Shown here in pieces: positions 1-15,832 of a DNA stretch of 15,832 bases. The DNA lies in the NCBI GenBank assembly GCA_963582955.1, contig CAUZVF010000025.1, forward strand, positions 1 to 15,832. Direction: 5' to 3'. The first letter of the stretch is position 1; every line of letters begins with the position of its first letter. The notes beneath the pieces are model-generated. The model ran no database searches and was not told the origin of the DNA. It saw only the letters and a program-made list of their open reading frames with translations. Both the position numbers and the translations under genes were made by a program. This stretch comes from Planctomycetota bacterium (GTDB taxonomy: Bacteria; Planctomycetota; Planctomycetia; Planctomycetales; Planctomycetaceae).

Positions 1-156
1 GCTTTTACTTTTGATGCCGTCTTGTGTCAATCCCGAGTGAATGACGTCGCCGGATCGCCGAAACGTCTTATCTGTCCTGATCGTCCCCGGTTGACTATGC
101 TCTGGCTGTCGCACCAAAGTCTGAACTCACGTGTGATCGCCTAGAATTCGTGGAAG

Positions 157-1338
157 GTGTCAGTCAGTTCAATTGGCCAGGAGCTTCGATCCGTGGAATT
201 GCCGCGAAATCCAACCAGACACGTCAAAATTGGGACGGTGGCCATCGGTGATGGGAATCCTATCGCCGTTCAAAGCATGACGGCAACTCGGACGCAAGAC
301 ATTGATGCGACCGTTGGCCAAATCAACGCGGTTTCCGATGCCGGAGCCGATCTGTTACGAGTTGCCGTTGACAGCCGCAAGGATGCCGAAGCACTGGCGG
401 AAATCCGTAATCAGACGACAGCTAACCTGTCGGTTGACTTGCAAGAAAATTACCGATTGGCCGAACAGGTGGCTCCCTACGTCGACAAGATTCGCTACAA
501 CCCCGGTCACCTCTATCACCACGAACGCGAAAAACCGTGGCAGGACAAAGTCGAATTCATCGCCCGTGTCGCTCAAGAGCATGATTGTGCGGTTCGAGTT
601 GGCGTGAATTGCGGATCCGTCGATCCGGCGAAATCCGACAAATACGCCGACGACGATTCCATCTCGCCCATGTTGGAAAGCGCACTTGACCATTGTGCGT
701 TCCTCGATTCATTGGGATTCACGCGCTATTGCGTTTCGTTGAAAGATTCGAATCCCCAAAAGGTGATCGATGTCAACAAACGCTTTGCCGAGAAACGTCC
801 CGACGTACCGTTGCATTTGGGAGTCACCGAAGCCGGCATGCCGCCCGACGGAATTATCAAGACACGGATTGCTTTCGAGCAACTGATCAGCCAGGGAATC
901 GGTGACACGATACGAGTGTCGTTGACCGTCCCTAACGACCGCAAGCACGAAGAAATCGAAGCCGGCCGTCAGATTCTGACCGACATCGCCGATGGCCGAG
1001 TCCGCTCGGTCGTCGATTTTGGTTTGAACACGCTGAACATCATTAGTTGCCCCAGTTGCTCGCGCGTCGAAAACGAAGCGTTCGTCGAATTGGCGGCCGA
1101 CGTCAAAGCGATGACGGCATACGCCCAGGAACACGCCATCACGATCGCCGTCATGGGTTGCCGAGTGAACGGTCCTGGAGAAACCGACGACGCCGATCTC
1201 GGCCTGTGGTGTGCTCCGAACTTCGTCAATTTGAAACGCGGCGAAGAATCACTGGGAGCTTACCCGTACGACGAAATCCTACCGCGGCTAAAACAGGAAC
1301 TCGACGCGTTGATCGGACAGCGTACCCGTGCGAATTGA
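157..1338 (+). CDS. ispG: 4-hydroxy-3-methylbut-2-en-1-yl diphosphate synthase (IspG/GcpE), MEP isoprenoid pathway, short two-domain bacterial form
   Basis: 393-aa ORF with a GTG start at 157; the N-terminus is bounded by an in-frame TAG at 142-144. IspG signatures in the translation: [38 protein letters not shown], and the C-terminal 4Fe-4S domain ISCPSCSR ... [11 protein letters not shown] (three Cys plus Glu ligands). There is no large internal insertion. Confidence 0.93.
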
Positions 1339-1550
1339 GCGTGTTTCCTTCGCTAAGAAACTGAGGAAGAATTGATTCCCGAAAATCTATTCTGGTGGGT
1401 ACCACGTCTTGCCGTTCAGGCAAGGCGTGTCGCGCAGCGACGGGAAACTGTTCTTTGGCTGGCTGAAAGCAAAGTTCGATACGAGTGCTTACCGGCACAC
1501 TTTGCGAGGCTGTATTTTGGCTCTGATCGTGGTACAGCGATTTCCGTTTC

Positions 1551-1634
1551 GTTTAACGGCAAGCCGCAGGCGACTGCGTTTCGTTGCCGGTCTTCGTTCC
1601 GCGCAACGCGGTCGCCTGCGGCTTGCCGTTAAAC
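1551..1634. repeat. 84-nt palindromic element: 24-bp perfect inverted repeat (1551-1574 / 1611-1634) with 5 further inner base pairs
   Basis: GTTTAACGGCAAGCCGCAGGCGAC (1551-1574) is the exact reverse complement of GTCGCCTGCGGCTTGCCGTTAAAC (1611-1634). Positions 1576-1580 (GCGTT) also pair with 1605-1609 (AACGC) after one T/G position, leaving a 24-nt loop at 1581-1604. The element lies in the 330-bp spacer between convergent ispG and pyrH. Its existence is certain; its function is unknown. Confidence 0.9.
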
Positions 1635-1667
1635 AAAGGAACAACGGTTGCACAGTTTCTCGTTTTG

Positions 1668-2435
1668 CTACTCCGCGTCCTGTGTTGCGATTTCCGAGGC
1701 TGCCACGACGCGTGTTCCAATGCGTTCGCCGGCGATGACGCGTTCGATGTTACCGGATTTCTTGAAGTTGAAAACAACGATGCCGATACCGTGTTCCATG
1801 CAATGGTGTACGGCCTGAGCGTCCATGACCTGCAGGTTTTGTCGCAGGACATCGTTGAACGAGATCACCGAATACCGGACCGCGTGAGGATTTTTTTCGG
1901 GATCTTCCGCGTAAACTCCGTCGACTTTGGTGGCTTTCAGCACGACATCGGCTTCAATCTCACGAGCCCGCAGGGCCGCGGCGGTGTCGGTCGTGACGAA
2001 CGGGCTGCCGGTTCCCGCGGCCAGAATCACAACCCGGCCTTTTTCCAGATGTCGCACGCACCGCCGGCGGATAAACGGTTCGGCAACGCCTTCCATGCGG
2101 ATCGCACTTTGCAGCCGCGTTGGCACGCCGGCGTTTTCCAGCGCGTCTTGCAGAGCCAGTCCGTTGATGACGGTGGCCAGCATTCCCATGTAGTGGGCCG
2201 TCGACGGCGCGATCGCCGCGCTCACGGCCGCGAACTGTTTGCCGCGTAGAATGTTGCCGCCGCCGCAAACAATCGCCAATTGGACTCCCGTTTCGACAAC
2301 GCGTTTGATCTGTTTCGAGAACTCGGCAACCTCCGTCATGCTGATGCCGGATTCCCCACTGCGGCAGAAACTCTCGCCACTGATTTTGAGAATCACACGT
2401 TTGTACACAGATCTCGGCGCGGTTGCTTCCGTCAT
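1668..2435 (-). CDS. pyrH: UMP kinase (uridylate kinase)
   Basis: The track ORF runs to 2516, but homology starts at [12 protein letters not shown]. The ATG at 2435 (cat at 2433-2435) is preceded by GAAAGGAA 7 nt upstream. Amino-acid-kinase fold motifs are present: [49 protein letters not shown]. Stop is TAG at 1668-1670. Confidence 0.92.
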
Positions 2436-2453
2436 GGTAAAGTTCCTTTCGAC

Positions 2454-2514
2454 GGTAGGACGGGGACTCCTGCCCGTCAGATCAATGATGACGGGCAGGA
2501 GTTCCCATCCTACC
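2454..2514 (-). promoter_or_regulatory. tsf-pyrH intercistronic stem-loop (26-bp arms, 24 Watson-Crick pairs, 9-nt loop)
   Basis: Arms GGTAGGACGGGGACTCCTGCCCGTCA (2454-2479) and TGACGGGCAGGAGTTCCCATCCTACC (2489-2514) are complementary at 24 of 26 positions. The structure starts 13 nt after the tsf stop and ends 18 nt before the pyrH ATG, just upstream of its RBS. No U-tract follows in the sense (minus) orientation. Confidence 0.6.
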
Positions 2515-2526
2515 AATGAAAAACCT

Positions 2527-3363
2527 CTACGTTCCGAGAACCCAACACGTGAATCCGGCCGCTTCCAATCCGTGCTCGGCCAATGCCTGGCTGACCGTCT
2601 TGGAATCGTCCTTGGCGAAGGCTTGTTGCACCAAGACGCCTTGTTCGACGTAGAAGTTCTTCATCCGGCCGTCGACGATCTTGTCGATGATGTTATCCGG
2701 TTTTCCGGTTGCCCGGGCTTCTTCCGACAGACGGTCGCGTTCGGTTTGGACGGCTGCCTGATCCAGTTCGTCCGTCGTCGTCACGCTGGGACGCAAGGCG
2801 GCGATGTGCATGGCGACGTCTCGTAGGACGGGCGATGTGGCATCCTCACCCTTCGCCTGAAACAACGTCCCCGTTTTGCCGTCATGATGGACGTAACCGG
2901 CGACGGGCCCGTCAACACGTGTGACCTTGACCACCACGATTTTCTCGCGGATTTTGTTGACCAGTCCCTCGTAAACTTCATTCAGCGTCTTGCCTTCGAC
3001 ATCGGGCGCCGGTTGAGAAAGCAGTTCTTCTGGGTTTGAGGCTCCCGTGCCATCGAGCATCTGACGAGCGCACTGATTGCCCAGCGACTGAAACTCGTCA
3101 TTAGCCGCGACCGGCGCCGATTCGCACTGAATTTCAACCATTGCCGCGGCGCTGCCGTCGTCCTTCACGATGATTGTAATGCGGCCCTCGCCCGTGGCGT
3201 TGTCGGCACGCTTCAGTTGGATCTTCTTCGATCCGTCCTTCAAAATTTCGATCGCCTTTTCCTGGTCACCATCGGTTTGAACCAATGCTTTTTTGCAATC
3301 CATCATCGGAAGATCGGTCAGCTCGCGAAGAGCCTTGACGGCGGCAGCGGTGATTTCGGCCAT
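2527..3363 (-). CDS. tsf: Translation elongation factor Ts
   Basis: Homology begins at [27 protein letters not shown] (the UBA-like N-terminal EF-Ts domain). The ATG at 3363 is preceded by GAGAAGGAGAAAG. The 70 extra upstream codons in the track ORF are R/H/P-rich and look non-coding. 278 aa, stop TAG at 2527-2529. Confidence 0.93.
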
Positions 3364-3510
3364 GTTACTTTCTCCTTCTCTAGTGCGAATGCTGTGCGGA
3401 AATGCGATGGTTGCGATCCGGCGAATCGTATGCCGGTGCGTCAATTCCATTGACACGCCTGAACATGCGGCAGTTCGGCCGGCTTCCGCAAAGCGCGAAC
3501 GTTGTTCGAG

Positions 3511-3557
3511 CAAGAAAACAATCCGTCGCCGCGGCCGATGCTGGCCAGCGGCAACGG
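3511..3557 (-). terminator. Putative intrinsic terminator/attenuator inside the rpsB-tsf spacer
   Basis: The minus-sense RNA reads CCGUUGCCGCUGGCC-AGCAUC-GGCCGCGGCGACGG. That is 14 bp (13 Watson-Crick plus 1 G-U) with one bulged U. It is followed immediately by AUUGUUUUCUUG. The structure lies about 105 nt after the rpsB stop and about 148 nt before the tsf ATG. Confidence 0.45.
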
Positions 3558-3662
3558 AGTATGGCACAGCCATTTTGAAATGTCCGGTTCAAGTTGCCAA
3601 TTCGTGTTCTTCTCACGGCCCGCACGGACAAGACAACATGGCCCCGCCATATATCGAAACGA

Positions 3663-4412
3663 TTAAATACTCGGAACAGCCTTTGGTTCGTCGCCATCCT
3701 GATCGTCGACGACTTTTTTCGGCTCTGGCAGTTTAGCCTTCCCTTCCAGGATCGCTTCCGACAGATAGTTCAAGACCAGACGGATTGAACGGATACTGTC
3801 GTCGTTGCCAGGGATCGGCAGGTCGACGTCATCGGGATCGGAATCGGTGTCGATCAGTGCGACCGTTTTGATTCCCAACAGCCGGCATTCGTTGATGCAG
3901 TTTTTTTCCTTGTTCGGATCGATCACGATGACCGCTTCCGGCAGCCGGTTCATCTCGCGAATCCCTCCCAAGTTTCGGTTGATCTTTCGAAACTCACGAG
4001 TAACGCGGGCTTGCTGCTTTTTGGAATAAGTTGCCAGATCTCCGCTCTCGTTCAGCTCTTCCAATTCTTCCAACCGGCGCAATCGGCTGCGGACCGTGCG
4101 GAAGTTCGTGAGTGTCCCGCCCAGCCATCTCTCTGTACACCAGGGCATTTCCGTTGCCGCAGCCGCTTCGGTGATCGGTCCGGCCGCCTGTCGTTTCGTG
4201 CCGACAAACAGAATCAGGCTGCCTTGTCCCGACACGCGTTTCAGATACCGCTGAGCCCGCAGCAATCCGCGAACGGTTTCCTTGATATCAATGATGTGGA
4301 TCAGATTGCGACGGCCATAAATGTAGGGCCGCATTTTGGGATTCCATTTACTGGTCCGATGACCGAAATGCACTCCCGACTCGAGGATTTCCTTGACGAC
4401 AATTTCTGCCAC
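3663..4412 (-). CDS. rpsB: 30S ribosomal protein S2
   Basis: S2 signature [41 protein letters not shown] ... LGGIREM ... [25 protein letters not shown] prefer the GTG start at 4412 (cac at 4410-4412), preceded by GGAG in GAACAGGAGATCACAATC-GTG. It gives a typical S2 N-terminus and 249 aa. The alternative ATG at 4439 adds 9 residues. The track start at 4493 is unlikely. Stop is TAA at 3663-3665. Confidence 0.9.
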
Positions 4413-4571
4413 GATTGTGATCTCCTGTTCCCGAACCATTCGGGAGGGTAATACTGGGCACACTTGCGACGCAGCAAGCGTTCTTGGCCGCACGTTTTCA
4501 AGAAGAATGAAACTGACACCCCGAAGAATCCACTAGCTCCGTGCGAAAGTGGGTGAAATTCCAAGAGGCAT

Positions 4572-4626
4572 CCCGGCAGTGCCGGGCCGCAAATTCACTC
4601 ACGATCCGCCGTGAGTGCCGAATTTG
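4572..4626 (-). terminator. Tandem hairpins downstream of the accessory cluster (candidate U-less terminator region)
   Basis: Hairpin A: CAAATTCACTCACG (4590-4603) pairs with CGTGAGTGCCGAATTTG (4610-4626), giving 7 + 7 bp with a 3-nt bulge. Hairpin B: CCCGG (4572-4576) pairs with CCGGG (4582-4586). Both lie 75-130 nt after the stop at 4700 and upstream of rpsB. No U-tract is present, so the call is weak. Confidence 0.3.
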
Positions 4627-4699
4627 GAACCGCTTATCGTATTGATTCGCCAAACTTGCGTCAAACCACGCTCTTGCGGCCCAAGATTTCATGTGGGAA

Positions 4700-6811
4700 C
4701 TAAAGAATCTCGACGGTTCCCGCGCTTCCATCAATTGTGATCGAGCTACCATCGACGATTCGCTGGCATGCCGACGGAACCCCAAGAACGGCTGGGACAC
4801 CAAACTCACGGCAAATGACGGCTGTGTGAGAAAGAAGGCCGCCGGTTTCCGTGATGACTCCGGCAACGCGATTAAGGACCGGCGTCCAACCGGGATCGGT
4901 AAACGGACAGACAAGTATTGCGCCGGCGGGGATTTGCGTGGCGTCTTCCACGGTACCGGCGACGCGGGCAGTGCCGCGAATTGTTCCCGGACTGGCTCCG
5001 ATTCCTTGCAGCGCGCCCGTACAAACGACTGGTTTGAATTGAAAGCGGCCGCCAATTTCGTTCGGAGCCTGGAAGTTGCGATAGCTTTCGTAGATTTCGC
5101 GATTGGGTTTCACCGCGGAGCGATCGTCTTCAAAAATCTCGCGGAACGTCATGAAGAAGATGTCGTCGCCAATGCCACGCCGCTCGGCGATTTCCAACAC
5201 ATGGCGGCGAATCAAGTAATACATCCGGCTCGACAGGTCACGTAATTCCTCACGGAGCCAAACGAAATGTCGCAAGCGATCGAGTTTGCGGTTAAATGAA
5301 CGGCGTTTCCAAATCGGTACCCGTGCGACGGCCTCCGCTCGTGCTTGTTCGTATGCCGGTCGCGGATCGGCGGCTTCTTGGCCCGATAAATTGTTGAGCA
5401 GTTGTTCGACGAATTCCCGATCCTCGTCCCAGCGCGGCTGAATGATGTCGAGCCCCAAACGGTACTGGTGTCGGAATTCGCGGAGTAATTGTGTGACGTC
5501 AGAATCGCCGCGCTCGGCCATCTCTCGCATCTTTCGGACGGGTGCCGCGTGACGGAGTGGCGGTAGCGCGGCAACCAATGATGAGTAATCAGCCTGCGGG
5601 AAAGACATCTTGAAATCCATTTTCGCGAGCGAAAGTGCGAAGATCGTTCGAAAATACGTAGATTCCGTTGCGAAGAAATCGCGTTCGATCAGTCGGAGGA
5701 ATGACGAATCAACATCGTCGTCGGCGGTCGGCTCGTACTGCCGCTCGATCTTGTCGAAATCACTTTCCAGCAGCGTCCGCGCGGACGCCGCTTGTTTCTT
5801 GAGGAATGAGCGCACTCCGAACGCGATTGGCAAAACTCGAAACAAGCTCCGCAATGTCAACGGTGTGCAGTTTCCGTCGCCTTCGTAATTGATCTGGACG
5901 CTCAAATCGTTATCGAATTCGCGTTCAACGAAACCTGGAATCTTGGCCACGCATTGTTTGACAGCTCCCAGATTCCAATACGGCCGGCCAAAAAACATCC
6001 GGGCAGCCTGAAAATCATCGGTTAACAATTTGACTTCGCGCAGGCAGCTCTTCAGAGTGGTTTCCCAAATGAAGTCATACAGCGACCACATCAGCGGCGA
6101 GCAAACAGTGCTCGACACGCCGCCATCGCGAAAGTCGGCGTTGGTCCATTCACCGACTTCGGCGAAAAATCCGATGCGAGTGATCGGCCGCGCTTGCAGG
6201 ATGTAAAACACTTCGTCTTCGATCGCGAATTCGATGTCTTGAGGTGTTCCGAAGTGCCGATGGATTTCGCGCGCCGTCGCAGCAATCTCGGACGCGTATT
6301 TCCGCAATAGCGGATCGGTGTTTGGCAGAGCCGACTTGCGGCCGGCCAACAAGTCGTCAGCGAGTCCCTCGCAGGCTTCGATGACGACTTCTTCGGCACC
6401 GGTTGTCGGATTGACCGTGAACGCCACGCCTGCCAAGACGGGCTGCACCATGCGCTGCACGATGACTTGCATTCGTAGTGATTCCGCGGCAATCCCGTTG
6501 TGCCGGCAGTATTCGATGACCGTTGGTGTTCGCAGCGATTCGTGACATTTGCGAACAGCCGCTTCAACTTCATTTGCCGACGACAGATTCAGAAAGCTGC
6601 TGAACTGGCCGGCGAACGACGTGTCTCGCCCGTCTTCGGCCGACGCCGACGAGCGGACGGCCAATGGCGTGCCGAGACGGCTGACAACTTCATCGAAGTC
6701 AGTTGGCGACACAACGAATTCAGGAACACGAAACCCAGCCGACTGCAATTCGCGCAAGACGGCGGCTTTGCCTCCAAGCCTTTGCCGATTTTCACTAACG
6801 AGTGTTGACAT
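4700..6811 (-). CDS. ATP-grasp + swivel phosphohistidine phosphotransferase (PEP-utilizing enzyme family, rifampicin-phosphotransferase/PpsA-like architecture, no PEP/pyruvate TIM-barrel domain)
   Basis: 703 aa. The ATG at 6811 is preceded by GAGAGG and overlaps the upstream gene by 17 nt. The N-terminal PPDK_N-type ATP-grasp covers about aa 1-212: RLGGKAAVLRELQSAGFRVPEFVV, VRSSASAEDGRDTSFAGQF, VIVQRMVQPVLAGVAFTVNPTTG, DIEFAIEDEVFYILQARPIT. The middle domain (about aa 213-595) starts with EWTNADFRDGG..SPLMWS, as in RPH-like proteins. The C-terminal mobile domain is GIGASPGTIRGTARV...ILVCPFTDPGWTPVLNRVAGVITETGGLLSHTAVICREFGVPAVLGV, with the catalytic His candidate at nt 4826-4828. Confidence 0.87.
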   Translation of the reverse strand: MSTLVSENRQRLGGKAAVLRELQSAGFRVPEFVVSPTDFDEVVSRLGTPLAVRSSASAEDGRDTSFAGQFSSFLNLSSANEVEAAVRKCHESLRTPTVIEYCRHNGIAAESLRMQVIVQRMVQPVLAGVAFTVNPTTGAEEVVIEACEGLADDLLAGRKSALPNTDPLLRKYASEIAATAREIHRHFGTPQDIEFAIEDEVFYILQARPITRIGFFAEVGEWTNADFRDGGVSSTVCSPLMWSLYDFIWETTLKSCLREVKLLTDDFQAARMFFGRPYWNLGAVKQCVAKIPGFVEREFDNDLSVQINYEGDGNCTPLTLRSLFRVLPIAFGVRSFLKKQAASARTLLESDFDKIERQYEPTADDDVDSSFLRLIERDFFATESTYFRTIFALSLAKMDFKMSFPQADYSSLVAALPPLRHAAPVRKMREMAERGDSDVTQLLREFRHQYRLGLDIIQPRWDEDREFVEQLLNNLSGQEAADPRPAYEQARAEAVARVPIWKRRSFNRKLDRLRHFVWLREELRDLSSRMYYLIRRHVLEIAERRGIGDDIFFMTFREIFEDDRSAVKPNREIYESYRNFQAPNEIGGRFQFKPVVCTGALQGIGASPGTIRGTARVAGTVEDATQIPAGAILVCPFTDPGWTPVLNRVAGVITETGGLLSHTAVICREFGVPAVLGVPSACQRIVDGSSITIDGSAGTVEIL

Positions 6812-9251
6812 GAGCCTCTCGTCGTTCGGCGCCCAGCATGCAAGTCTGACGATCGGCCAACTCGAACCCGTGCCGGATTGCGATGTTTGCGATACGAGAG
6901 ATCTGATCGGCTGTCAGTGATCCGGCAAATGTCGCATCTCGAACTCCTTCGAATCCCAGCAGGATGCCTTCCGCCATGCAACCAAAAGTGTATCCGTTCG
7001 GGAGCGGAAACCCGTCAATCTCTAAATCCTCACCGAACGGAAGCCGCACGATACCACCCTTGAGAATTTCGATATCGGGGCGCAATTCCGGTGTTTTAGG
7101 ATGAATGCTGCTGGGCACGGAAACGTCGCACACGATCGTGTTCTCGGCAAAGTGAGTTGGCTCCAACGGTGTTTCGACGGTACTCATCGCCGACAGCACC
7201 ACATGCGCATGGCGGATGTCGGTGATTTCGGTCGAGATCTCGGAGTTTGGAATTCTCGACGACAGCTTGTTCAACCGCGCGGCAGAACTTCGCTTGTTAC
7301 TACCGAGCAAGATCGTCCGGCGGAATTCTCGTCCGAGGAATTCGGCGCATGTGCTGCCAATGTTTCCCGCCGCACCGGCAATCGCGAGGACGGAATCTGA
7401 CCGGTTGATCCCACGCTCACGCATTGCGCGATCGATGGCTTGAATCGCCAACGCGATTGCGAAACTGTTTCCGGTCGTCAGGCCCATGTCGGTTACATTC
7501 AGACCACGGCCGTTGCGAGTCGCGATGGACGTGTATTGGCCGAGCGAGACGACGTCACAACCCAAGTGCCGGGCAACCTCGACAGCTTGCTCGATCAGTT
7601 GCTGGCATTGTCCACGCCGTCGCGATTCAATCCTGCGTTTCATCCACGAAGACGTGACTGGCAACATGATGGGATATAAGCGAACGTTTTCGTCCGTGAG
7701 CGAGCGGACATCGACGCCACTCATCACCACGGGACTTGCAAACGTACTGAATCGTTCCAAATAGTCTTTCAGTGATTCGCTCGAAAGATTATCGAATGAC
7801 GGTTCTTGGGCGACGAAGTCGTACACATCGATTCCGTGAAACAACCACGCCACGCGCTTTGGCGGAATGTCGCGTTGTTGCTCACGAAACCGGGATTCAT
7901 TCTTGGCGAACAGTTTCCAATCGGTTTGCAGCCAAGTCGTTGTTGGCTGAGCGGCATCGGCGACTGGTTCCGCGAGGAACTCGGTCAAAGCCACGGCATC
8001 GCCGTCTCGCAGACGCGTGCAGATATCTTCGAGTGCACAAATCAGCCGATCCAAGTCAGCGTCACGGATCAGTACGGACGGCTGAATCCGCAGCGTAAAC
8101 GGATCGCTGAGCGTTGCCGTTGCGCGAATCTGATGCCGATTCAACAAGTATCCCATCAACGCAAAGACAAGGTTGTCCTGAGACGACAGAAATCGCAGCA
8201 CAAAGCTGGAGGAATCGGACAGACGGCGAAATTCAATGCCGATCATCAACCCGGCTCCGCGGACATCGGCGATGATGTCGGGGAATTCTTGTCCAATAGA
8301 CCGCAGCCGGCCAAGTAGCCGATCACCTTTCGAGCGACAAGTGGCAAGAGTCGCCTCGTCGATCAATTCCAGAGTTTTCATCGCCAGGGCGCACGAAAAC
8401 TCGTCTTCCGCAAACGTGCTGGTGTGCAGCAAATCAAACGATTCGTCATAGCGGTCACGACGGATTAACAGCGCCGAAATCTTCGCGACACCTCCGCCGA
8501 GCGATTTGGCCAACAGAATGTAGTCGGGATCGACGCCCAGGTTTTGACACGCCAGGAATCGGCCCGTGCGTCCCGTCCCCGTCTGACATTCGTCAGCGAT
8601 CAACGGTACGTGGTGTTCCGCACACAACTCGGCCGCCCGCTGCAGGAAGGCAGGTTCCAGCAATCGAATGCCACCTTCTCCTTGAATGGGTTCGAAAATG
8701 AAGCCGGCGATTTCTGTCAGTCCGGCGAATGTCGCCTCCAAGTGCGCGATATCGTTGACTCGCACGCGCGCAACGTTCATTCCATTCAGCTTGAACGGTT
8801 TGCGGTAAGTTTCGTTTGCATCGAGCTGGACGGCTCCCAGCGTCTTTCCATGAAACGCGTTTTCGAGGCACACGAAGGTGTGGTTGCCGGTCTCCAGCAT
8901 CGCGTGTTTCATCGCCGCTTCGACGGCTTCGGCACCCGAGTTACCGAAGACCGCACAGAAATCACCGTTGGCACGACGCGACAACTCGGTTGCCAGTTGA
9001 CAGGCGCCTTCACGCATCGAACCCTGCACGTGAAGTGGCCGGCCGCTCGACAGAAATTGTTGTGCCTCGGCGACGAGTGCGGGATGCGAATGTCCTAGTA
9101 ACAGCGAACCGTAACCGCAGACCAGATCAAGCACTTCGGTTTCGATGCCGTTCTCATCACGATAAAAGACGAAATCACCGGCCGCGCGATGATAGACAAC
9201 GTCAAGCCGCAGTGCTTGGAGCAACTTGGATAATCGCGGGTGATGATTCAA
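6795..9251 (-). CDS. Fusion protein: class-III PLP aminotransferase (N-terminal, ~aa 1-425) + acyl-ACP reductase (AAR)-like NAD(P)H/Cys reductase domain (C-terminal, ~aa 466-800)
   Basis: 818 codons with a TTG start at 9251 (AAGGA 7 nt upstream); an alternative TTG lies at 9224. Aminotransferase motifs: GYGSLLLGHSHP, FEPIQGEGG, LIADECQTGTGRTGRF, LLAKSLGGG (PLP Lys at nt 8505-8507). The C-terminal half carries SLGQYTSI, LTTGNSF, the Rossmann motif LAIAGAAGNIGS (nt 7353-7379), FGCMAEGILLGFEG (Cys at nt 6978-6980) and IRHGFE. As I remember the sequence, these match cyanobacterial AAR along its whole length. Stop is TAG at 6795-6797. Confidence 0.85.
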   Translation of the reverse strand: MNHHPRLSKLLQALRLDVVYHRAAGDFVFYRDENGIETEVLDLVCGYGSLLLGHSHPALVAEAQQFLSSGRPLHVQGSMREGACQLATELSRRANGDFCAVFGNSGAEAVEAAMKHAMLETGNHTFVCLENAFHGKTLGAVQLDANETYRKPFKLNGMNVARVRVNDIAHLEATFAGLTEIAGFIFEPIQGEGGIRLLEPAFLQRAAELCAEHHVPLIADECQTGTGRTGRFLACQNLGVDPDYILLAKSLGGGVAKISALLIRRDRYDESFDLLHTSTFAEDEFSCALAMKTLELIDEATLATCRSKGDRLLGRLRSIGQEFPDIIADVRGAGLMIGIEFRRLSDSSSFVLRFLSSQDNLVFALMGYLLNRHQIRATATLSDPFTLRIQPSVLIRDADLDRLICALEDICTRLRDGDAVALTEFLAEPVADAAQPTTTWLQTDWKLFAKNESRFREQQRDIPPKRVAWLFHGIDVYDFVAQEPSFDNLSSESLKDYLERFSTFASPVVMSGVDVRSLTDENVRLYPIMLPVTSSWMKRRIESRRRGQCQQLIEQAVEVARHLGCDVVSLGQYTSIATRNGRGLNVTDMGLTTGNSFAIALAIQAIDRAMRERGINRSDSVLAIAGAAGNIGSTCAEFLGREFRRTILLGSNKRSSAARLNKLSSRIPNSEISTEITDIRHAHVVLSAMSTVETPLEPTHFAENTIVCDVSVPSSIHPKTPELRPDIEILKGGIVRLPFGEDLEIDGFPLPNGYTFGCMAEGILLGFEGVRDATFAGSLTADQISRIANIAIRHGFELADRQTCMLGAERREAHVNTR

Positions 9252-9443
9252 CTCGAAGTCCTTGGTCCGCTACGCAGGATCGCCGTGTTCGAGCCAGCAA
9301 CGGCTGCACTTTTTTTGGCCAGCGATCGCACTGGCGGTTGCAAGATTTCCACAATAACTTCCCATCGGATTCGGTCGCACGAGTTGGCGGTGAAAAAGCG
9401 CGCTATCCAACGAAACAAGACCCGTGGCGGTTTTCGAGCGTTT

Positions 9444-10829
9444 TTACAACGCGGAAAGAACTTCAGAGATCGTCCGATCCAAGATCGAAACGATCTCGTC
9501 GGCCTGTTTCTCGGTCAAAACCAACGGCGGTCCTAGTGCCAGCCAGTTGGGATCGAATCGCGTCAGCAGTCCGTTTTCAAGAGCACGTTGACCGATCTGG
9601 GTGCCGATTGGAAAGTCAAATTGCTCCTTCGTGTCGGGATTGCGCACGAATTCCATCCCAAGAAAGAGCCCTTTGCCGCGGATGTCGCCGATGATGCCAT
9701 GCTTGGAGCCAAGCTGCTCGATGCCTTTTCTCAGATGAGCCCCGACTTGACGCGCGTTCGCGCAAAGATCGCGTTCGACGATTTCAGCCAAGGTTGCCAA
9801 ACCGGCCGCGCTGGAAATCGGATTGCCTTCAAACGTATGCCCCTCGACGAATCCCGGATTGCTGGCCGGATCGCCCCAGAACGCATCGGCAACGTGCTGA
9901 CGGCAAACCAATGCTGACAACGGCGCGTATCCGCCACTGAGACCTTTTCCCAGACAGACCAGATCGGGGATGACGTCGAACGTCTGTGCCGCGAGAAAAT
10001 TGCCCGTTCGCCCCGCCCCCGTGATGATCTCGTCAAATACCAACAGCACATCGTATTTGTCACAGATTTCGCGCAGCATCGGCAGATATTCTTCGGGAGG
10101 ATCGATGATGCCGCCGGTGTGTCCGATCGGTTCGACCATCACGGCCGCCACGGTTTCAGGACCTTCCATTTCGATGACGTCACCGATCAAACTGGCACAT
10201 GTCAATTCGCAAGATGGATATTCTTTGCCGAACGGACATCGGTAACACGTCGGCGGAAACACATGCACGAATCCGCCAGCCAGCGGTTCGTTGACGGCGC
10301 GGCGCGACGCCAGACCGCCGGCCGACAGCGAACCCATCGTGGAGCCATGCCAAGACTGATACCGCGAGACGATTTTGTATTTCGTCGCCTGACCCTGCAG
10401 CTTGAAGTACTGGCGAGCCATTTTGATCGCGGCCTCGGTGGCTTCCGAACCGCCGGACAAGAGTTTGACGGCGTTCAAATCTGCAGGAGCCAACTCGGCG
10501 ATGCGGTTGGCCAGTTGCACGGCCAGCGGATTGGTTCCGTGCATTACTGGAGAAAAACTGAGCACGTCCATTTGTCGCTTGATCGACTCGATCACGCGGC
10601 GGTTGTTGTGTCCGACGCTGACCACATAGATGCCGGAAAGTGCATCAAGATACTGCTTTCCGTTGACGTCCCAATAATGGACGCCGTCGGCTCGCGACAT
10701 GATCAGTGGATTTTTCACAAAGTCGGTCATCTGCGACCGGACGAATATCTTCCGCAGGAATTGCTCTTCCGTCGATTGTGCTTCCGAAATTGTCACGTTC
10801 GTGGTTTCTTCAATCGTGTGTTGATCCAT
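9444..10829 (-). CDS. Class-III aminotransferase (omega-amine:pyruvate/oxoacid transaminase-like, aspartate aminotransferase fold type I)
   Basis: 461 aa; the ATG at 10829 is preceded by AGGAAA. Motifs: YLDALSGIYVVSVGHNN, LLSGGSEATEAAIKMAR, MVEPIGHTGGII, LLVFDEIITGAGRTGNF, PDLVCLGKGLSGGYAPLSA (PLP Lys at nt 9945-9947), HTFEGNPIS. Confidence 0.9.
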   Translation of the reverse strand: MDQHTIEETTNVTISEAQSTEEQFLRKIFVRSQMTDFVKNPLIMSRADGVHYWDVNGKQYLDALSGIYVVSVGHNNRRVIESIKRQMDVLSFSPVMHGTNPLAVQLANRIAELAPADLNAVKLLSGGSEATEAAIKMARQYFKLQGQATKYKIVSRYQSWHGSTMGSLSAGGLASRRAVNEPLAGGFVHVFPPTCYRCPFGKEYPSCELTCASLIGDVIEMEGPETVAAVMVEPIGHTGGIIDPPEEYLPMLREICDKYDVLLVFDEIITGAGRTGNFLAAQTFDVIPDLVCLGKGLSGGYAPLSALVCRQHVADAFWGDPASNPGFVEGHTFEGNPISSAAGLATLAEIVERDLCANARQVGAHLRKGIEQLGSKHGIIGDIRGKGLFLGMEFVRNPDTKEQFDFPIGTQIGQRALENGLLTRFDPNWLALGPPLVLTEKQADEIVSILDRTISEVLSAL

Positions 10830-10856
10830 GAGTTTTTTCCTGGGCGCCTTTCAATT

Positions 10857-11270
10857 TCATAGTGTCACGCCACGCCATTCTTCTTTGTATTCCGTAACAT
10901 CAACGACGTTGCCATCGGGGTCCAACACTTTGAACGACCGGCGCGGCGTCCAATCGTCACCAATCTCGTTTCGCGACTTGACGTCGTCTTTCGAGAACTC
11001 AGCTCCCCAATCGGACAATCGCTGCCAACATTCTTTCAAGTCATCGACGATGACTCCAAAATGAATGTACTCGTTGCCTTCGTCGAGGACTGGCCGCGAG
11101 CAATCATCGGGCTGCTGCAGCAACGTAATGTTGTTCACACCGTCGCTCAGGTCGAGACCGAGTCCGCTCGGCCGGTAGCCGATGAACTTCCAATCGAAAG
11201 CGGTTTCGTAAAATGTGCGGGACTTTTCCATGTCCATGCACCGGATTGCCAGATGTCGTAGTGAAGCCAT
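10857..11270 (-). CDS. VOC (glyoxalase I / bleomycin-resistance / dioxygenase fold) family protein
   Basis: 137 aa; the ATG at 11270 is preceded by GGAG 7 nt upstream. Typical VOC pattern: LRHLAIRCMDMEKSRTFYETAFDWKF at the N-terminus, EYIHFGVIVDDL in the middle, FKVLDPDGNVVDVTE near the C-terminus. Only 27 nt separate it from the downstream aminotransferase gene. Confidence 0.82.
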   Translation of the reverse strand: MASLRHLAIRCMDMEKSRTFYETAFDWKFIGYRPSGLGLDLSDGVNNITLLQQPDDCSRPVLDEGNEYIHFGVIVDDLKECWQRLSDWGAEFSKDDVKSRNEIGDDWTPRRSFKVLDPDGNVVDVTEYKEEWRGVTL

Positions 11271-11584
11271 TGACTGCTCCGTTAAGAGGATCTCTTTCGG
11301 CCATTTCCATCAAAGAGGGCAAATGCACTTGTGATCTGTCAGCCGTCAACCGATGGGTGTCAAAAAGTCACAAGACTTCTGGTTCGAACTTAGCTGTGAC
11401 AAAACACTCGTTTCCGGTTTCAACAATTCTGAACCAATCTCACGAAAATAGAAAGTTGTAGTAGCAGAATATGCCAAGACAGTTTACCATCGGTTCACTG
11501 CCGTTCTGATTTTTGGATATTTTTTTGACCAGCACTGCATCTGGCAATTCTCGGTCTTAGGCGAGATCAGGAAAGGGGCTCAAG
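11271..11584. promoter_or_regulatory. 314-bp divergent intergenic region (promoters for the minus-strand cluster and the plus-strand protease gene)
   Basis: This is the most AT-rich stretch in the window by eye. A T-rich run followed by TTGACC (11525-11530) lies 55 nt upstream of the protease ATG. TTGACA (11358-11363) and TTGACG (11344-11349) hexamers read on the minus strand upstream of the VOC gene. A 7-bp inverted repeat CTTGTGA (11328-11334) / TCACAAG (11368-11374) brackets four GTCA repeats. I could not pair any hexamer with a convincing -10 box. Confidence 0.4.
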
Positions 11585-13312
11585 ATGGCAATCGACGTCA
11601 CTTGCGACAGTTGTTTTTACGAGTTTAGTGTTCAAGACCAGCATGCTGGCAAACGTGGCCGATGTCCTGAATGCGGCGAGAGTGTCATGGTACCGGGTCG
11701 AGCTAGCCGCCCACAACGTCCCGCCCGAGGTGGCGCGTCGCCACCGTCCCGCCGGCCATCGTCGGGCGGCCGAACGAGAAGCGAATCGTCATCGGGATTG
11801 TCGGCTCCGGTCGGCGTGATCGTCGCTGGTTCCATCGCCGCGGTCGCCGTTATTGGATTTCTCGTGTATGCAATGGCTCGTGGCAGCGGCGAAAATAATT
11901 TGCCAGCCGGCGGCCAACAAATTGCCGCGAACGGTGAAAACGGCACTGCATCGAGCAACGATGACAAGTCGTCAGACGCCTCCAAGCGTTCGCAATCGCA
12001 GGGAAGCTCAAAGAGCGGCAATTCTCAGAATTCCAACGGCGCAAAATCGCAAGAAGTTACGTCAAACTCGACGGCGGGTTCATCGATTTCCACCGTTCCC
12101 AACAATCAGTCAGACAATAACAATCCGCAAACAAATGGCGGAGGCAACTCACCGGGCAACTCGGCAAGCAATTCTAGTACCAGTGCGGCTGCAAAAACGA
12201 TGTCAACAAAGGAATTGGTGGCGCTCATAGAGCCATCCGTCGTTCGAGTTAACGCCGTGAACGAAGAGGGCAAGCTCGAATGGCATGGCAGCGGTTTCAT
12301 CATCGAATCATCCGGCGTGATCGCGACGAATCACCATGTCGTTGCCGGGGCACACAAGGTTATTGTTGAATTCTCGGACAAGAAGAGTTACGCCGCCGAA
12401 GGTTACTACAAGATGAATCAGAAGTGCGATATTGCGATCATCAAGGTGAAATTGCCGCCGGGTTATCGGGCGCTTCCGTTAGCGAGTTCTGTGGCCGAGA
12501 AGGGAGAACAGGTTGTGGCCTTTGGGTGTCCGCACGGACTTGATTTCACGATCACCGACGGAACTGTGAGTGCACTTCGGACGTCGGAAGACATGAAGAA
12601 GATGGTTGGCCGCGACGGCACGGGAGAATGGATTCAAACGTCCGCACCGATTTCGTCAGGAAATAGCGGTGGCCCACTGGTCAACATGCAGGGCGAAGTG
12701 ATTGGCATTAACAGCTTGACCAGCACTCGGGGGCAAAACCTGAACTTCGCCATTTCGGCGGCTGATGTCCGTCAAATGTTCGAGTCCCGGGGCGAGACAT
12801 TGGTGGCTCTTTCCCGGGCTACCGAACCGAAAGGTGGCACAAAAACGCCTTCAAAGAAACAAGGGGAAGAATACGCGAAGATGTATCTCGCTCAAATTGA
12901 CTCCGTCTTTATCGGCGTGGCGAAGGAGGGTGACGCCGTCGATAAAAAGTCGCAGGAAAAGATTGGCGAGGCTATCGAAGGTCTTGCCAAACGCACACTC
13001 CGTAAATTAGATATTGGAACGGCTGGAATCATGGCCCAGTTTGGCCCGCGCATGCTCTTTACCGTCGAAGCGTTGGATGGCGCCGAGGCGGGAACCGCCG
13101 AAATCTCAATCGAGGCGGAGCTGATTTATCTTGTGCAGAAGGGTAATCTAATCCAGATCATCCCCCTTTGGAGTATGCGTGCCACTCTGGGGTCCGGGAA
13201 AAAGTTTCGTTTCCGGAAGGATCCGATGAAATACATCGATAAGGGAATGAAGGAATTCTTCCAAAAGATGGAGAACGAGATTCGGGCGGCCCGCAAACGC
13301 GCAGCGGGATAA
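11585..13312 (+). CDS. Membrane-anchored trypsin-like serine protease (S1C/HtrA-type) with N-terminal zinc ribbon, one TM helix, S/N/G-rich linker and an unassigned C-terminal domain
   Basis: 575 aa; the ATG at 11585 is preceded by GGAAAGGGG. The zinc ribbon is CDSC-x16-CPEC (nt 11603-11674). The TM helix is APVGVIVAGSIAAVAVIGFLVYAMA (nt 11804-11878). The low-complexity linker spans aa 100-204. The catalytic triad sits in classic contexts: GVIATNHHVV (His at nt 12335-12337), CDIAIIKV (Asp at nt 12428-12430), TSAPISSGNSGGPLVN (Ser at nt 12665-12667). The C-terminal ~150 aa show no PDZ-like motif. Confidence 0.87.
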   Translation: MAIDVTCDSCFYEFSVQDQHAGKRGRCPECGESVMVPGRASRPQRPARGGASPPSRRPSSGGRTRSESSSGLSAPVGVIVAGSIAAVAVIGFLVYAMARGSGENNLPAGGQQIAANGENGTASSNDDKSSDASKRSQSQGSSKSGNSQNSNGAKSQEVTSNSTAGSSISTVPNNQSDNNNPQTNGGGNSPGNSASNSSTSAAAKTMSTKELVALIEPSVVRVNAVNEEGKLEWHGSGFIIESSGVIATNHHVVAGAHKVIVEFSDKKSYAAEGYYKMNQKCDIAIIKVKLPPGYRALPLASSVAEKGEQVVAFGCPHGLDFTITDGTVSALRTSEDMKKMVGRDGTGEWIQTSAPISSGNSGGPLVNMQGEVIGINSLTSTRGQNLNFAISAADVRQMFESRGETLVALSRATEPKGGTKTPSKKQGEEYAKMYLAQIDSVFIGVAKEGDAVDKKSQEKIGEAIEGLAKRTLRKLDIGTAGIMAQFGPRMLFTVEALDGAEAGTAEISIEAELIYLVQKGNLIQIIPLWSMRATLGSGKKFRFRKDPMKYIDKGMKEFFQKMENEIRAARKRAAG

Positions 13313-13410
13313 CGTCGCCAATCGATTTGGACAGAGACAAACTTTCGACAGCGTTCCCGCTGGATTTCACCGCCGGGCTGTTACATTTCCGGGCCGTCAA
13401 CTTTGCTCGC

Positions 13411-15465
13411 TCACTTGCTTAACTTCATGCGGGCAACGCGGGCGAAGCGTTGGTCCGGCTTCTCCGGAGCTGCGTCGCTCAATACCGCCGGCAACCACAT
13501 CGGACGCGGGGCCTTGTCGTCGGGCATCGATTCCAGTATGGGAATCTTGATCTCGCCGATCTTCGGGCCGAACCGATGAGCGTCGGATTCGTGGAGGAAC
13601 AGCTTCTGACCGCCGATCAGTTTTGAAATCGCGGACGCCAGTTCTCCACCAAGACCCAGCCACAAAACGACGTTCGGGTCGGCTCGCAGAGCGATGCCTT
13701 GGTCGCCCGATGTTTCCATATGCTTAGCAAACGCTTCTTGCAATTCGGGGATCGTGGCATCCTCATTTGACTGCACAAAATCCGCCACCGCGCCCATCAC
13801 GTCGCCTTCTTGCAACAACGTAACCCACCGCTCGTCGTCCGAATACAATTCGTCCATCGCGGACAGGTCCAAATCGTCGTCATCGCTAGTTTCTTCTTTA
13901 TCGGTTTCGTCAAAGGGCTTGCCTTCTTCAACGCCTTTCTCGCGTTGCTCTTGTTCCAACATCTGCATCACGCGGCTGTCCGGAGTCGCCGGCCGGCACC
14001 GCGGCCGGCACCATTCCCGCAGAGCGAAGATCTTTTCTTCCATAGTGACCGACAACGGTACGGTTTCCTCACGGGCGCGGTCGAGATCCTTTTGGGTCAT
14101 CCCAGCTTCGCTGCCGAATGTTTCGACCATGGCCGTCAAGACGATCTGTTCGATTTCCGCGCCGCTGAAGCCTTCCGTCTGTTCCGACAATGTCCGTACC
14201 TCGTAGTCGTCGGGATTGAAGTTTCGTTTTTTGAGATGAATTTCAAAAATCTCGATGCGTTCGTGGTAGTTCGGCAAGTCGATAAAGAACAGTTCGTCAA
14301 AACGTCCACGACGCAGCATTTCGGGCGGCAGAGCGGTGACCGAGTTGGCCGTTGCAACCACGAACACGCCCGCCGTGTTTTCTTGCATCCACGTCAGAAA
14401 CCGGCCGACCAGCCGGACCATGACCGAATCGGTCGTGTCACCGGTTGAGCCGGCGAAACCCTTCTCGATTTCATCCAGCCACAGCACGGCCGGAGCGATC
14501 ATTTCCATCAGGTTCAAAACGTCACGGAGGTTCTTCTCGGATGCACCGCTGTCGGCACTGAGCAGCGTCGAGACATCCAGCCGCACTAAGGGAAAGCTGA
14601 GCATCATCGCGATCGCTCGCGACGACAGGCTCTTACCACACCCCTGAACACCTAACAGCAACACGCCTTTCGGTGCGGGAATGCCCTGTTTGCGAGCCTT
14701 TTCGCTGAATGCCTGAGACCGGCGTTCGGTCCAATCTTTCAGCCCCTGCAGGCCGCCGATGTCTCCTTTGCCCTCGGCCAATTCCTGGAATTCCAGCATG
14801 TCCGATCCCGATACCATGCTCTTTTTCTCGGAAACCAGCAGCTTAAACGTCTCGTTGCCGATCTCGTTGCAATCCAGCAGGCCGCGGGCGAGAGCGCGGT
14901 GTGCCTCGCGCGTTGTCAGGCCCATCACGGCCTTGATCATCCGCTCTTCTTGATCATCCGTGACACTCAACGTTGAACCGTTTCGCGAGTTTCGCTCATC
15001 CAATACCGCTGTCAGTTCCTTGCGGATTTCCGGTATTCCGGGCAAAGGGAGTTCAACGGCGATGGCATCCTTCACCAATGAAACGGGAATCTGCGGATTC
15101 GGACCCATGAAGAGCAACGACTTGTTGTTTTCCTTCAGGTTGGGGATCAGGTCACGAAGCTTCCGCACAACTTTCGGGTCGTTGAGGTACGGCTGAAAAT
15201 CTTTGATGAGGAAAAGCGTGTCACGACTGTATGTTTCAATCTGTTCCAGCATCGCCAGCGGACTGGCCGTGTCGCCGTCGTCGGCACGCGCCGGAGGCAG
15301 CATCCCCGTGGTGACCGACCATGTCGCGATTCCTTTCTCAATCTCCAGAGCCAATTCCGCCAGTTCCGACTCCCAGCGTTCTTCTTCCCAAGTTTCAAGA
15401 AACAGCACCGAGAAGCCCGAGACAATTCTCGCACGCAGCAGATCAACAGCTTCGGATGTTAACAT
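13411..15465 (-). CDS. Ycf46-like AAA+ ATPase with C-terminal acidic linker and extra domain
   Basis: 684 aa, ATG at 15465. The Ycf46-type N-terminal region is LLRARIVSGFSVLFLETWEEERW. Walker A is GVQGCGKS (nt 14629-14652) and Walker B is VLWLDEIEK (DE at nt 14470-14475). Also present are VVATANSVTALPPEMLRRGRFDELFFIDLP and the family-typical end PLSVTMEEKIFALREWCRPRCRPA at about aa 470-493. About 185 further residues follow. Confidence 0.88.
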   Translation of the reverse strand: MLTSEAVDLLRARIVSGFSVLFLETWEEERWESELAELALEIEKGIATWSVTTGMLPPARADDGDTASPLAMLEQIETYSRDTLFLIKDFQPYLNDPKVVRKLRDLIPNLKENNKSLLFMGPNPQIPVSLVKDAIAVELPLPGIPEIRKELTAVLDERNSRNGSTLSVTDDQEERMIKAVMGLTTREAHRALARGLLDCNEIGNETFKLLVSEKKSMVSGSDMLEFQELAEGKGDIGGLQGLKDWTERRSQAFSEKARKQGIPAPKGVLLLGVQGCGKSLSSRAIAMMLSFPLVRLDVSTLLSADSGASEKNLRDVLNLMEMIAPAVLWLDEIEKGFAGSTGDTTDSVMVRLVGRFLTWMQENTAGVFVVATANSVTALPPEMLRRGRFDELFFIDLPNYHERIEIFEIHLKKRNFNPDDYEVRTLSEQTEGFSGAEIEQIVLTAMVETFGSEAGMTQKDLDRAREETVPLSVTMEEKIFALREWCRPRCRPATPDSRVMQMLEQEQREKGVEEGKPFDETDKEETSDDDDLDLSAMDELYSDDERWVTLLQEGDVMGAVADFVQSNEDATIPELQEAFAKHMETSGDQGIALRADPNVVLWLGLGGELASAISKLIGGQKLFLHESDAHRFGPKIGEIKIPILESMPDDKAPRPMWLPAVLSDAAPEKPDQRFARVARMKLSK

Positions 15466-15544
15466 GATGATTGAACCAAGAGTTGTTGGTGAGGATTCGT
15501 ATTCACTTCGTCAGCGGATATTCTGGCCACAACACATTCTTGAC

Positions 15545-15832
15545 TCAATCCTTAACAACCGGATTTGTCAGAGTGCCGATTCCGGAAATTTCAATCGAGA
15601 CCGAATCACCGTTCTGCAAAGTGAATTCGTCCGGTGGCACGATTCCGGTGCCAGTGAGCAGAAAGGCTCCGTTGGGGAACGTGTTTTCTTTTCCGAGCCA
15701 ACCAATCAGGTCCTCAAAGCCACGGGCCATTTGGTCGAGATTCGTTTCACCATGAAAGACCTCGCTGCCGCCGCGCTGGATTGTCAGAATGATCTTCGTG
15801 TTCGGACGATCCAGCGGTGCTTCGGGCAGCAG
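15545..15832 (-). CDS. Fumarylacetoacetate hydrolase (FAH) family protein, C-terminal part only (N-terminus lies beyond the window)
   Basis: The frame stays open from the window edge. My translation of 15832-15545 is LLPEAPLDRPNTKIILTIQRGGSEVFHGETNLDQMARGFEDLIGWLGKENTFPNGAFLLTGTGIVPPDEFTLQNGDSVSIEISGIGTLTNPVVKD. The L(L/M)TGTG(I/T)xP...L..GD.V...I.GIG.L.N pattern is the FAH-family C-terminus. The track lists only the part from the internal Met at 15730. Confidence 0.78.
   Translation of the reverse strand: MLPEAPLDRPNTKIILTIQRGGSEVFHGETNLDQMARGFEDLIGWLGKENTFPNGAFLLTGTGIVPPDEFTLQNGDSVSIEISGIGTLTNPVVKD

Follow-up and report, generated by a model that had tools for sequence, protein, structure and literature searches.

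The stretch of DNA analyzed here, referred to as the window, comprises 15,832 nucleotides (nt) from a Planctomycetota bacterium of the Planctomycetaceae (assembly GCA_963582955.1, contig CAUZVF010000025.1, positions 1 to 15,832). On its reverse strand it carries a gene in which a class III aminotransferase and a reductase resembling acyl-acyl carrier protein reductase (AAR) are joined in one polypeptide, and this gene overlaps a second one for a phosphoenolpyruvate (PEP)-utilizing enzyme. The fusion protein is a divergent transaminase-thioester reductase (TA-TR) of the same kind as TamH from the tambjamine YP1 pathway of Pseudoalteromonas tunicata (PtTamH) and PigE from Serratia, and its architecture is not new. 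What is new here is the pairing with a short enzyme of the rifampin phosphotransferase (RPH)/PigC type. The two genes and their main features are as follows.

6795 to 9251, reverse strand: TA-TR didomain gene encoding 818 amino acids (aa), an uninterrupted 818-codon frame with a TTG start and a TAG stop
9259 to 9263, reverse strand: Shine-Dalgarno-like AAGGA, 7 nt 5' of the TTG at 9251
7968 to 9239, reverse strand: class III (omega) aminotransferase domain, residues 5 to 428 (approximate), by Pfam PF00202
8505 to 8507, reverse strand: AAA codon of Lys249, the predicted pyridoxal phosphate (PLP) Schiff-base lysine (LLAKSLGGG), by alignment with PtTamH and by invariance
7869 to 7967, reverse strand: interdomain linker, residues 429 to 461 (approximate), the sole internal low-confidence stretch of the AlphaFold2 (AF2) model (block 431 to 440, pLDDT 55)
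6837 to 7868, reverse strand: AAR-like thioester reductase domain, residues 462 to 805, by matches to TIGR04058, the PigE N-terminal domain, and the Protein Data Bank (PDB)
7356 to 7376, reverse strand: Rossmann dinucleotide motif G626-A-A-G629-N-I-G632, by AAR alignment and conservation
6978 to 6980, reverse strand: TGC codon of Cys758, the predicted acyl-accepting nucleophile, by alignment with AAR Cys294, PigE GCMAE, and TamH ACCGE
4700 to 6811, reverse strand: partner gene, a 703-aa PPDK_N plus PEP-utilizers enzyme of the RPH/PigC type, by Pfam and a match to Listeria RPH
4826 to 4828, reverse strand: CAC codon of the partner's His662, predicted to be the phospho-carrier, by alignment of GGLLSHTAVICREFG with GGLMTHGAVIAREYG of Listeria RPH

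An open reading frame (ORF) check bore out what had been read from the letters alone (the sequence-only reading) concerning the gene, namely, an uninterrupted frame, a TTG start at 9251, and no ATG before codon 79. Upstream, the frame is closed by an in-frame TAG (9272 to 9270) 18 nt from the TTG. In an alignment of 115 full-length homologues with 51 to 70% identity, family-wide residue conservation starts at L7/L11, and since the first in-frame Met is residue 79, the TTG is the only workable start. A protein 100% identical to the 818-aa fusion is on record (P0001). Promoter and terminator scans of positions 4300 to 11700 returned no more sites than shuffled sequence did, and neither Rfam families nor tRNAs were found in the window.

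The N-terminal half matched Pfam PF00202 (Aminotran_3) over residues 18 to 355 with 232 bits, compared with a cutoff of 30.5, and both motifs quoted for it in the sequence-only reading, LLAKSLGGG and DECQTGTGRTGRF, are present. Its nearest solved structures were CrmG, the C-terminal domain of PigE, and the putrescine aminotransferase YgjG, which are omega-transaminases that handle aldehydes or amines. K249 lies in register with ITLAKSLGGG of PtTamH and LAKAIGGG of CrmG, and K249, D220, and Q223 are invariant in all 115 homologues. D220 is the Asp expected to bind the pyridine nitrogen, and the domain has both the Lys and the Asp expected of a class III aminotransferase.

[quoted passage not shown] The HMMER alignment with AAR, which had been suggested as a check on the cysteine and the Rossmann motif, put both in register. 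Cys758 occupies the column of AAR Cys294, where the structure of the C294S mutant (6jzz) reads Ser, in agreement with its earlier designation as the counterpart of the acyl-accepting Cys of AAR. The F-x-C-x-A-E motif is kept (FGCMAEG in the fusion versus FACFAEA in AAR), and the first Rossmann Gly precedes the catalytic Cys by 132 residues, exactly as in S. elongatus AAR (G162 to C294). Among the 115 homologues, G626, G629, and G632 are invariant, and C758 is kept in 114. Five of the six motif pairs that had been quoted for the Synechococcus enzyme appeared exactly so in the HMMER alignment (SLGQYTSI/ALGGFTSI, TTGNS/TTGNT, the GAAGNIGS/GATGDIGS block, FGCMAEGILLGFEG/FACFAEAMLLEFEG, and IRHGFE/VRHGFQ); the sixth, VAWLFHG/MFGLIGH, fell outside the aligned region, so that the homology claimed with AAR stood while its description as end to end was slightly overstated. 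The second Rossmann strand is not followed by an acidic residue (LLGSNKRS, in which K653 is mostly conserved), a feature of the sequence that weakly hints at NADPH as the cofactor; against this hint, TamH uses NADH (PMC9594044).

We considered whether this half could instead be a generic NAD(P)-binding domain, similar to an "amino acid dehydrogenase" or shikimate dehydrogenase and with no acyl-enzyme chemistry, or whether the fusion itself could be an artifact. The JGI annotation names homologues "predicted amino acid dehydrogenase," and no Pfam family scored above threshold in the C-terminal 364 to 379 residues, which gave only faint Shikimate_DH, Semialdhyde_dh, and KR matches. However, the AAR and PigE N-terminal domain matches are specific and span about 300 residues, non-Rossmann parts included, and the near-universal cysteine is not what a plain shikimate dehydrogenase without a conserved Cys, the outcome that the sequence-only reading had allowed for, would present. 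The 115 homologues are colinear through the linker and come from independent contigs in JGI, ENA, NCBI, and Logan. An AF2 model built with these sequences reached a pLDDT of 91.3 and a pTM of 0.90 and was uncertain only at the linker (about residues 429 to 444); in it, both domains are well folded and are placed relative to each other with confidence. This model replaced one from a 22-sequence alignment (pLDDT 65, and less than 50 around the Cys), which was set aside. Because the homologues are colinear through the linker and the model is well folded, the fusion is very unlikely to be a frameshift or assembly artifact, and the generic-dehydrogenase explanation is effectively refuted as well. 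By profile matches and sequence matches to PDB entries, the original assignment of a class III aminotransferase joined to an AAR-like reductase with an acyl-accepting Cys was correct.

The reductase domain was used in a HMMER scan of 1.84 billion cluster representatives, which yielded 2298 matching proteins at an E value of ≤1e-3 and 373 at ≤1e-30. Among the best 150 representatives at 50% identity, 118 had the aminotransferase-reductase order (110 with two domains and 8 with the didomain behind further domains), 32 had the reductase only, several of these being fragments, and none had the reductase-aminotransferase order of PigE. The sequence-only reading had known of no characterized enzyme with this architecture, a statement contradicted by the literature, in which PtTamH has the same order and PigE the reversed one. 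It had also conceded that the architecture might turn out to be common and functionally assigned, and the order tally, together with TamH and PigE, shows that this is the case. An unfused version of the pair, with the aminotransferase and the AAR-like reductase as separate adjoining genes, was seen in Tumebacillus avium (L029, 9962 to 12756) and at two other loci (L048 and L051).

The partner gene starts at an ATG within the fusion gene, so that its first 17 nt are shared with the 3' end of the latter (overlap 6795 to 6811). Both Pfam domains of the partner scored above their cutoffs (PPDK_N, 154.8 bits; PEP-utilizers, 87.5 bits), and its best PDB match was Listeria RPH (E 2e-50). It remained below the curated cutoffs for Rph, PigC, RedH, and PEP synthase, with 204 to 255 bits compared with the required 866 to 1350. 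PigC, HapC, RedH, and TamQ belong to the same family, in which a phosphoryl group passes from ATP to a phospho-His and then to the substrate (PMC13534948). Like RPH and these enzymes, the partner combines an ATP-grasp domain (PPDK_N) with a C-terminal swivelling His domain and keeps the catalytic His motif; it differs from PigC and RedH in being about 170 aa shorter and in having a divergent middle (substrate-binding) domain.

The same overlap of 17 nt was found wherever called coordinates gave both gene ends, namely, in six loci (the window plus L001 and L083 to L086, five loci from different metagenomes), and because the partner start overlaps the fusion end by this constant length, conserved translational coupling is suggested. 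A PEP-utilizing gene of about 700 to 730 aa came directly after the fusion in five of the six annotated homologue contexts, and the sixth had diverged copies upstream. An earlier contig scan with generic aminotransferase peptide patterns had returned mostly unrelated aminotransferases and only about ten loci with both domains. Metagenome contigs were then scanned specifically for the reductase, and together with the loci already found this provided 30 nonredundant close relatives with enough downstream sequence. In 17 of these, the short PEP-utilizing enzyme lay directly downstream (56 to 70% identity); the other 13 did not have it, and 6 of the 13 had a fatty acid desaturase there instead. 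The downstream gene probably encodes a working partner of the fusion.

From the homology, the conserved catalytic residues, the colinearity with PtTamH, and the operon and fusion links to a PEP-utilizing enzyme, all of which were observed directly, we infer the direction of the reaction, the class of substrate, the cofactor, and the role of the partner. The gene quite probably encodes a bifunctional enzyme of the TamH type that converts an acyl thioester via the aldehyde to an amine, with the partner next in line. In this scheme, the C-terminal AAR-like domain would take a (probably fatty) acyl group from acyl-acyl carrier protein (ACP) or acyl coenzyme A (acyl-CoA) onto Cys758, the acyl-enzyme would be reduced with NAD(P)H to release the aldehyde, and the N-terminal aminotransferase, with PLP on Lys249, would turn the aldehyde into a primary amine with an amino acid as the donor. 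Fusion of the domains may limit the escape of the reactive aldehyde. The partner would move a phosphoryl group from ATP via His662 and most likely act on the product of the fusion, or couple a second molecule to it, as TamQ and PigC do. The earlier suggestion that the reductase hands a reactive aldehyde to the transaminase is supported by analogy, as such a transfer has been shown for PtTamH (PMC9594044) and proposed for PigE (PMC8341465). A fatty acyl substrate is hinted at by the fatty-acid-CoA-ligase-family ANL genes in the larger clusters and by the desaturase directly after the fusion in a sister subclade (both described below).

Several observations weigh against this assignment. The protein is only about 29% identical to PtTamH. 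Scores were far below the curated equivalog cutoffs, with 76.2 bits versus 449.7 for TIGR04058 and 370 bits versus 850 for PigE (NF053554), the best NCBIfam match of the fusion; because of this, the C-terminal domain is, as judged by its sequence, a homologue of AAR and PigE rather than an orthologue. PtTamH rejects acyl-CoA (PMC9594044), and purified PigE had no reductase activity in vitro, both of which make the substrate prediction uncertain. In the window there is neither an ANL, an ACP, or another obvious acyl-donor gene nor a sign of amine use. The long RedH-like paralogue of the larger clusters is a closer analogue of PigC than the short partner is, and the latter may act differently. 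The activity assigned to this clade as a whole draws on sequence and analogy.

The pairing is also found within single polypeptides. Proteins of 1830 to 2000 aa (P0172 and P0407 to P0413) contain both the short PEP-utilizing enzyme and the aminotransferase-reductase didomain; they form at least eight 90%-identity clusters, from an Oscillatoriaceae metagenome-assembled genome (MAG), Nocardia, and others. Both orders occur, and the one in Nocardia otitidiscaviarum (aminotransferase-reductase-PEP-utilizing) is that of the window operon. End to end, P0172 shares 37% identity with the 703-aa partner, compared with only 25 to 29% for the long paralogues. The functional link between the two window genes therefore rests on three independent lines, i.e., adjacency, the fixed overlap, and recurrent fusion. 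Elsewhere, the didomain stands at the C terminus behind a lone ACP, a KR-ACP fragment, a polyketide synthase (PKS) module, or a nonribosomal peptide synthetase (NRPS) C-A-PCP module. Proteins of this PKS-, NRPS-, or ACP-linked type include P0210 (2559 aa), P0212 (2997 aa), P0228, and P0243. In such megasynthases, the didomain would be a terminus for chain release plus amination, unlike the usual arrangement of a short-chain dehydrogenase/reductase-type R domain with a separate transaminase, and its position behind ACP, PKS, and NRPS modules fits carrier-bound thioesters as the usual substrates.

The triple fusions also bear on a different scheme, in which neither ACP nor CoA takes part. There, the partner would make an acyl phosphate via phospho-His662, Cys758 would attack it (as in aspartate-semialdehyde dehydrogenase or ArgC), and the resulting aldehyde would be transaminated, so that the pair would form a carrier-free acid-to-amine module. 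Such a scheme would account for the strict operon coupling and for the fact that in the triple fusions the PEP-utilizing enzyme occupies the upstream position held elsewhere by ACP, PKS, or NRPS modules. No ANL or ACP gene was found in the window or at L084, and none of seven contexts of the planctomycete or verrucomicrobial type had a PP-binding gene. In its favor also, the related glutamyl-tRNA reductase (GluTR) has a nonthioester acyl donor, and succinyl-CoA synthetase transfers phosphate from a phospho-His to a carboxylate. However, the triple-fusion loci L167 (N. otitidiscaviarum, 10001 to 15835) and L168 (10001 to 15640) are directly flanked by ANL and ACP genes, as in the logic of TamA and TamH, and we downgraded the acyl-phosphate idea because of this. 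Additionally, an ANL is within reach in 8 of the 17 paired loci, acyl-phosphate formation is known for no member of the RPH/PigC/PEP synthase family, and the characterized TA-TR relatives use thioesters. We consider the carrier-free scheme improbable. The L167 cluster also includes two ACPs, an ANL, a P450, a long PEP-utilizing paralogue, an Aminotran_1_2 enzyme, an NTP_transf_5 protein, and a HAD protein, and no literature was found on it.

Around the pair, a recurrent cluster of about 10 genes was observed (L001, 2171 to 19027; L083, L086 to L089, L098, and L109), of which the window holds only the core pair. Its members were counted over the 17 paired loci, and the counts are lower bounds: a DUF4440/SnoaL-type protein (at least 12 loci), DUF3419 (BtaA-like; at least 11), an unannotated protein of about 331 aa (at least 8), a fatty-acid-CoA-ligase-family ANL (at least 8), a long paralogue of about 900 aa that aligns end to end with RedH and from which the partner is distinct (at least 5), a UbiA prenyltransferase (at least 5), a major facilitator superfamily (MFS) transporter (at least 5), a P450 (at least 4), and a sulfotransferase (at least 4). 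Among the Pfam families recorded for the neighbor genes, several of which carry no annotation, nothing pointed to bipyrrole synthesis. We found no description in the literature of a TA-TR didomain paired with a PEP-utilizing enzyme or of the larger cluster.

These neighbors also bear on the possibility that the TamH-type reaction runs in reverse, with the aminotransferase deaminating an alkylamine or polyamine and the AAR-like domain oxidizing the aldehyde to an acyl thioester, in the manner of an acylating aldehyde dehydrogenase. The resemblance of the aminotransferase domain to YgjG (about 198 bits), the presence of a second omega-aminotransferase gene just upstream, and the setting of the locus, with housekeeping genes around it and no obvious biosynthetic cluster, would all fit catabolism. 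However, all of the characterized relatives (AAR, TamH, and PigE) work reductively, the partners conserved in relatives point to biosynthesis (ANL, UbiA, P450, sulfotransferase, and MFS exporter), an ATP-consuming phosphotransferase would make little sense as a partner, and the aminotransferase gene upstream does not accompany the fusion in relatives. A catabolic role thus appears very unlikely.

In a sister subclade, whose reductase domain is 48 to 53% identical to that of the window, a desaturase follows the fusion (L002, 12477 to 13313; L095, L099, L100, L113, and L117). These desaturases are 80 to 90% identical among loci, and their presence hints at lipid substrates. L002 also has a phosphatidylserine decarboxylase-like gene and DUF3419. 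At a more distant locus, from a Pyrinomonadaceae MAG (L005, 12531 to 18595), a 38%-identical fusion stands in quite another setting, beside three B12-binding radical-SAM genes and a FemAB-like gene.

Two genes upstream of the fusion in the window were considered as members of the system and rejected: a second class III omega-aminotransferase (9444 to 10829, reverse strand, 461 aa) and a glyoxalase/VOC-fold gene (10857 to 11270, reverse strand, 137 aa). Neither was beside the fusion in any relative, and both are probably unrelated to it. The flanks consist of housekeeping genes at 157 to 1338 (forward), 1668 to 4493 (reverse), 11585 to 13312 (forward), and 13411 to 15465 (reverse), i.e., ispG, pyrH-tsf-rpsB, an HtrA-like protease, and a 684-aa AAA+ ATPase. 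The HtrA-like protease has an N-terminal extension of about 220 aa and no PDZ domain match. Ribosomal protein S2 of the window is 72 to 76% identical to that of named Planctomycetaceae such as Maioricimonas and Planctomicrobium, which places the contig in this family. Because the fusion operon is inserted between core genes and several phyla are represented among its closest relatives, horizontal spread is suggested.

A broader proposal can be put forward only tentatively, and we rate it at somewhat less than an even chance. A conserved module of three activities may consist of the TA-TR didomain together with the short RPH/PigC-type phosphotransferase; it would make a lipid-derived amine and then couple, cyclize, or elaborate it by ATP-driven phosphoryl activation, outside bipyrrole pathways. 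This module would be the core of a recurrent cluster for a new class of amino-lipid or alkaloid-like metabolites, and PigE/TamH and PigC/TamQ would be specialized offshoots of it. The pair occurs as an operon with the 17-nt overlap in Planctomycetota and Verrucomicrobiota and forms a single polypeptide in Nocardia and the Oscillatoriaceae MAG, and MAGs annotated as Acidobacteriota and Deltaproteobacteria carry close homologues. By the fused reductase-transaminase design, nature has a proven way of making primary amines from fatty acids, and TamA and TamH have already been used as a one-pot biocatalytic cascade (PMC9594044). The design reaches beyond the pigment pathways of a few Proteobacteria, and its compact version with AAR spacing is widespread in uncultured Planctomycetota, Verrucomicrobiota, and Acidobacteriota, which adds candidate acid-to-amine biocatalysts. 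The link to a phospho-histidine ATP-utilizing enzyme points to unrecognized follow-up chemistry on the amine and to an uncharacterized metabolite family, and cultured carriers (Horticoccus sp. and N. otitidiscaviarum) make the question directly testable.

Of the known systems, S. elongatus AAR (PDB 6jzq/6jzy, TIGR04058) resembles the C-terminal domain, with homology over the region described above and with Cys294, TTGN, and GxxGxxG kept, and it likewise channels its aldehyde product to a next enzyme. It differs in being a stand-alone protein of about 340 aa that passes the aldehyde to aldehyde-deformylating oxygenase for alkane formation, whereas in the window the acceptor is the fused transaminase; neither such an oxygenase nor a ferritin-like protein was found among the window ORFs. 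GluTR and glutamate-1-semialdehyde aminomutase of tetrapyrrole synthesis, an analogy drawn in the PigE paper (PMC8341465), are alike in that a Cys-dependent NADPH reductase acting on an activated acyl group hands its aldehyde directly to a PLP enzyme of the class III fold. They differ in being separate proteins, in using Glu-tRNA as the acyl donor, and in having an aminomutase as the PLP enzyme.

[quoted passage not shown] The domain order of the window protein is swapped relative to PigE, with the aminotransferase half matching PigE residues 389 to 729 and the reductase half residues 79 to 335. The Cys motif GCMAE is identical in the two proteins, and pigC, which encodes a PEP-utilizing ligase, is in the same operon as pigE. 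The PigE product cyclizes to a dihydropyrrole for prodigiosin; PigD-like, PigB-like, and bipyrrole-pathway proteins were not found among the scanned ORFs of the window.

The closest characterized counterpart is PtTamH (UniProt A4C5V8), a fatty-amine-forming didomain described in 2022, which in vitro converted a C12 acyl group on the ACP of TamA to dodecanal with NADH and then to dodecylamine with L-Glu (PMC9594044). Both proteins have an N-terminal class III omega-transaminase followed by a C-terminal AAR-like thioester reductase, and they align in register at LAKSLGGG, at the Rossmann motif GAAGNIG, and at the catalytic Cys. A BLASTP comparison with the PtTamH sequence, taken from the supplementary information of PMC9594044, was colinear over both domains, with 29% identity over 742 columns (E 5e-86) and 47% over the first 115 residues. 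PtTamH is longer (941 aa), with inserts of about 78 aa in the aminotransferase and about 50 aa in the Rossmann region of the reductase, while the spacing in the window protein is the compact one of AAR. TamH is encoded in a 19-gene tam cluster together with TamA (ANL-ACP) and bipyrrole (MBC) genes, which the window lacks, as its ORFs gave no match to AMP-binding, PP-binding, or pyrrole-pathway domains. Among the relatives, some have an ANL, and ACP genes turned up only next to the triple fusions. In both systems, a PigC-type enzyme accompanies the didomain: in the tambjamine pathway, the PigC-family TamQ acts downstream, whereas in the window the PEP-utilizing partner is a short paralogue of about 700 aa encoded immediately adjacent to the fusion gene and overlapping its end.

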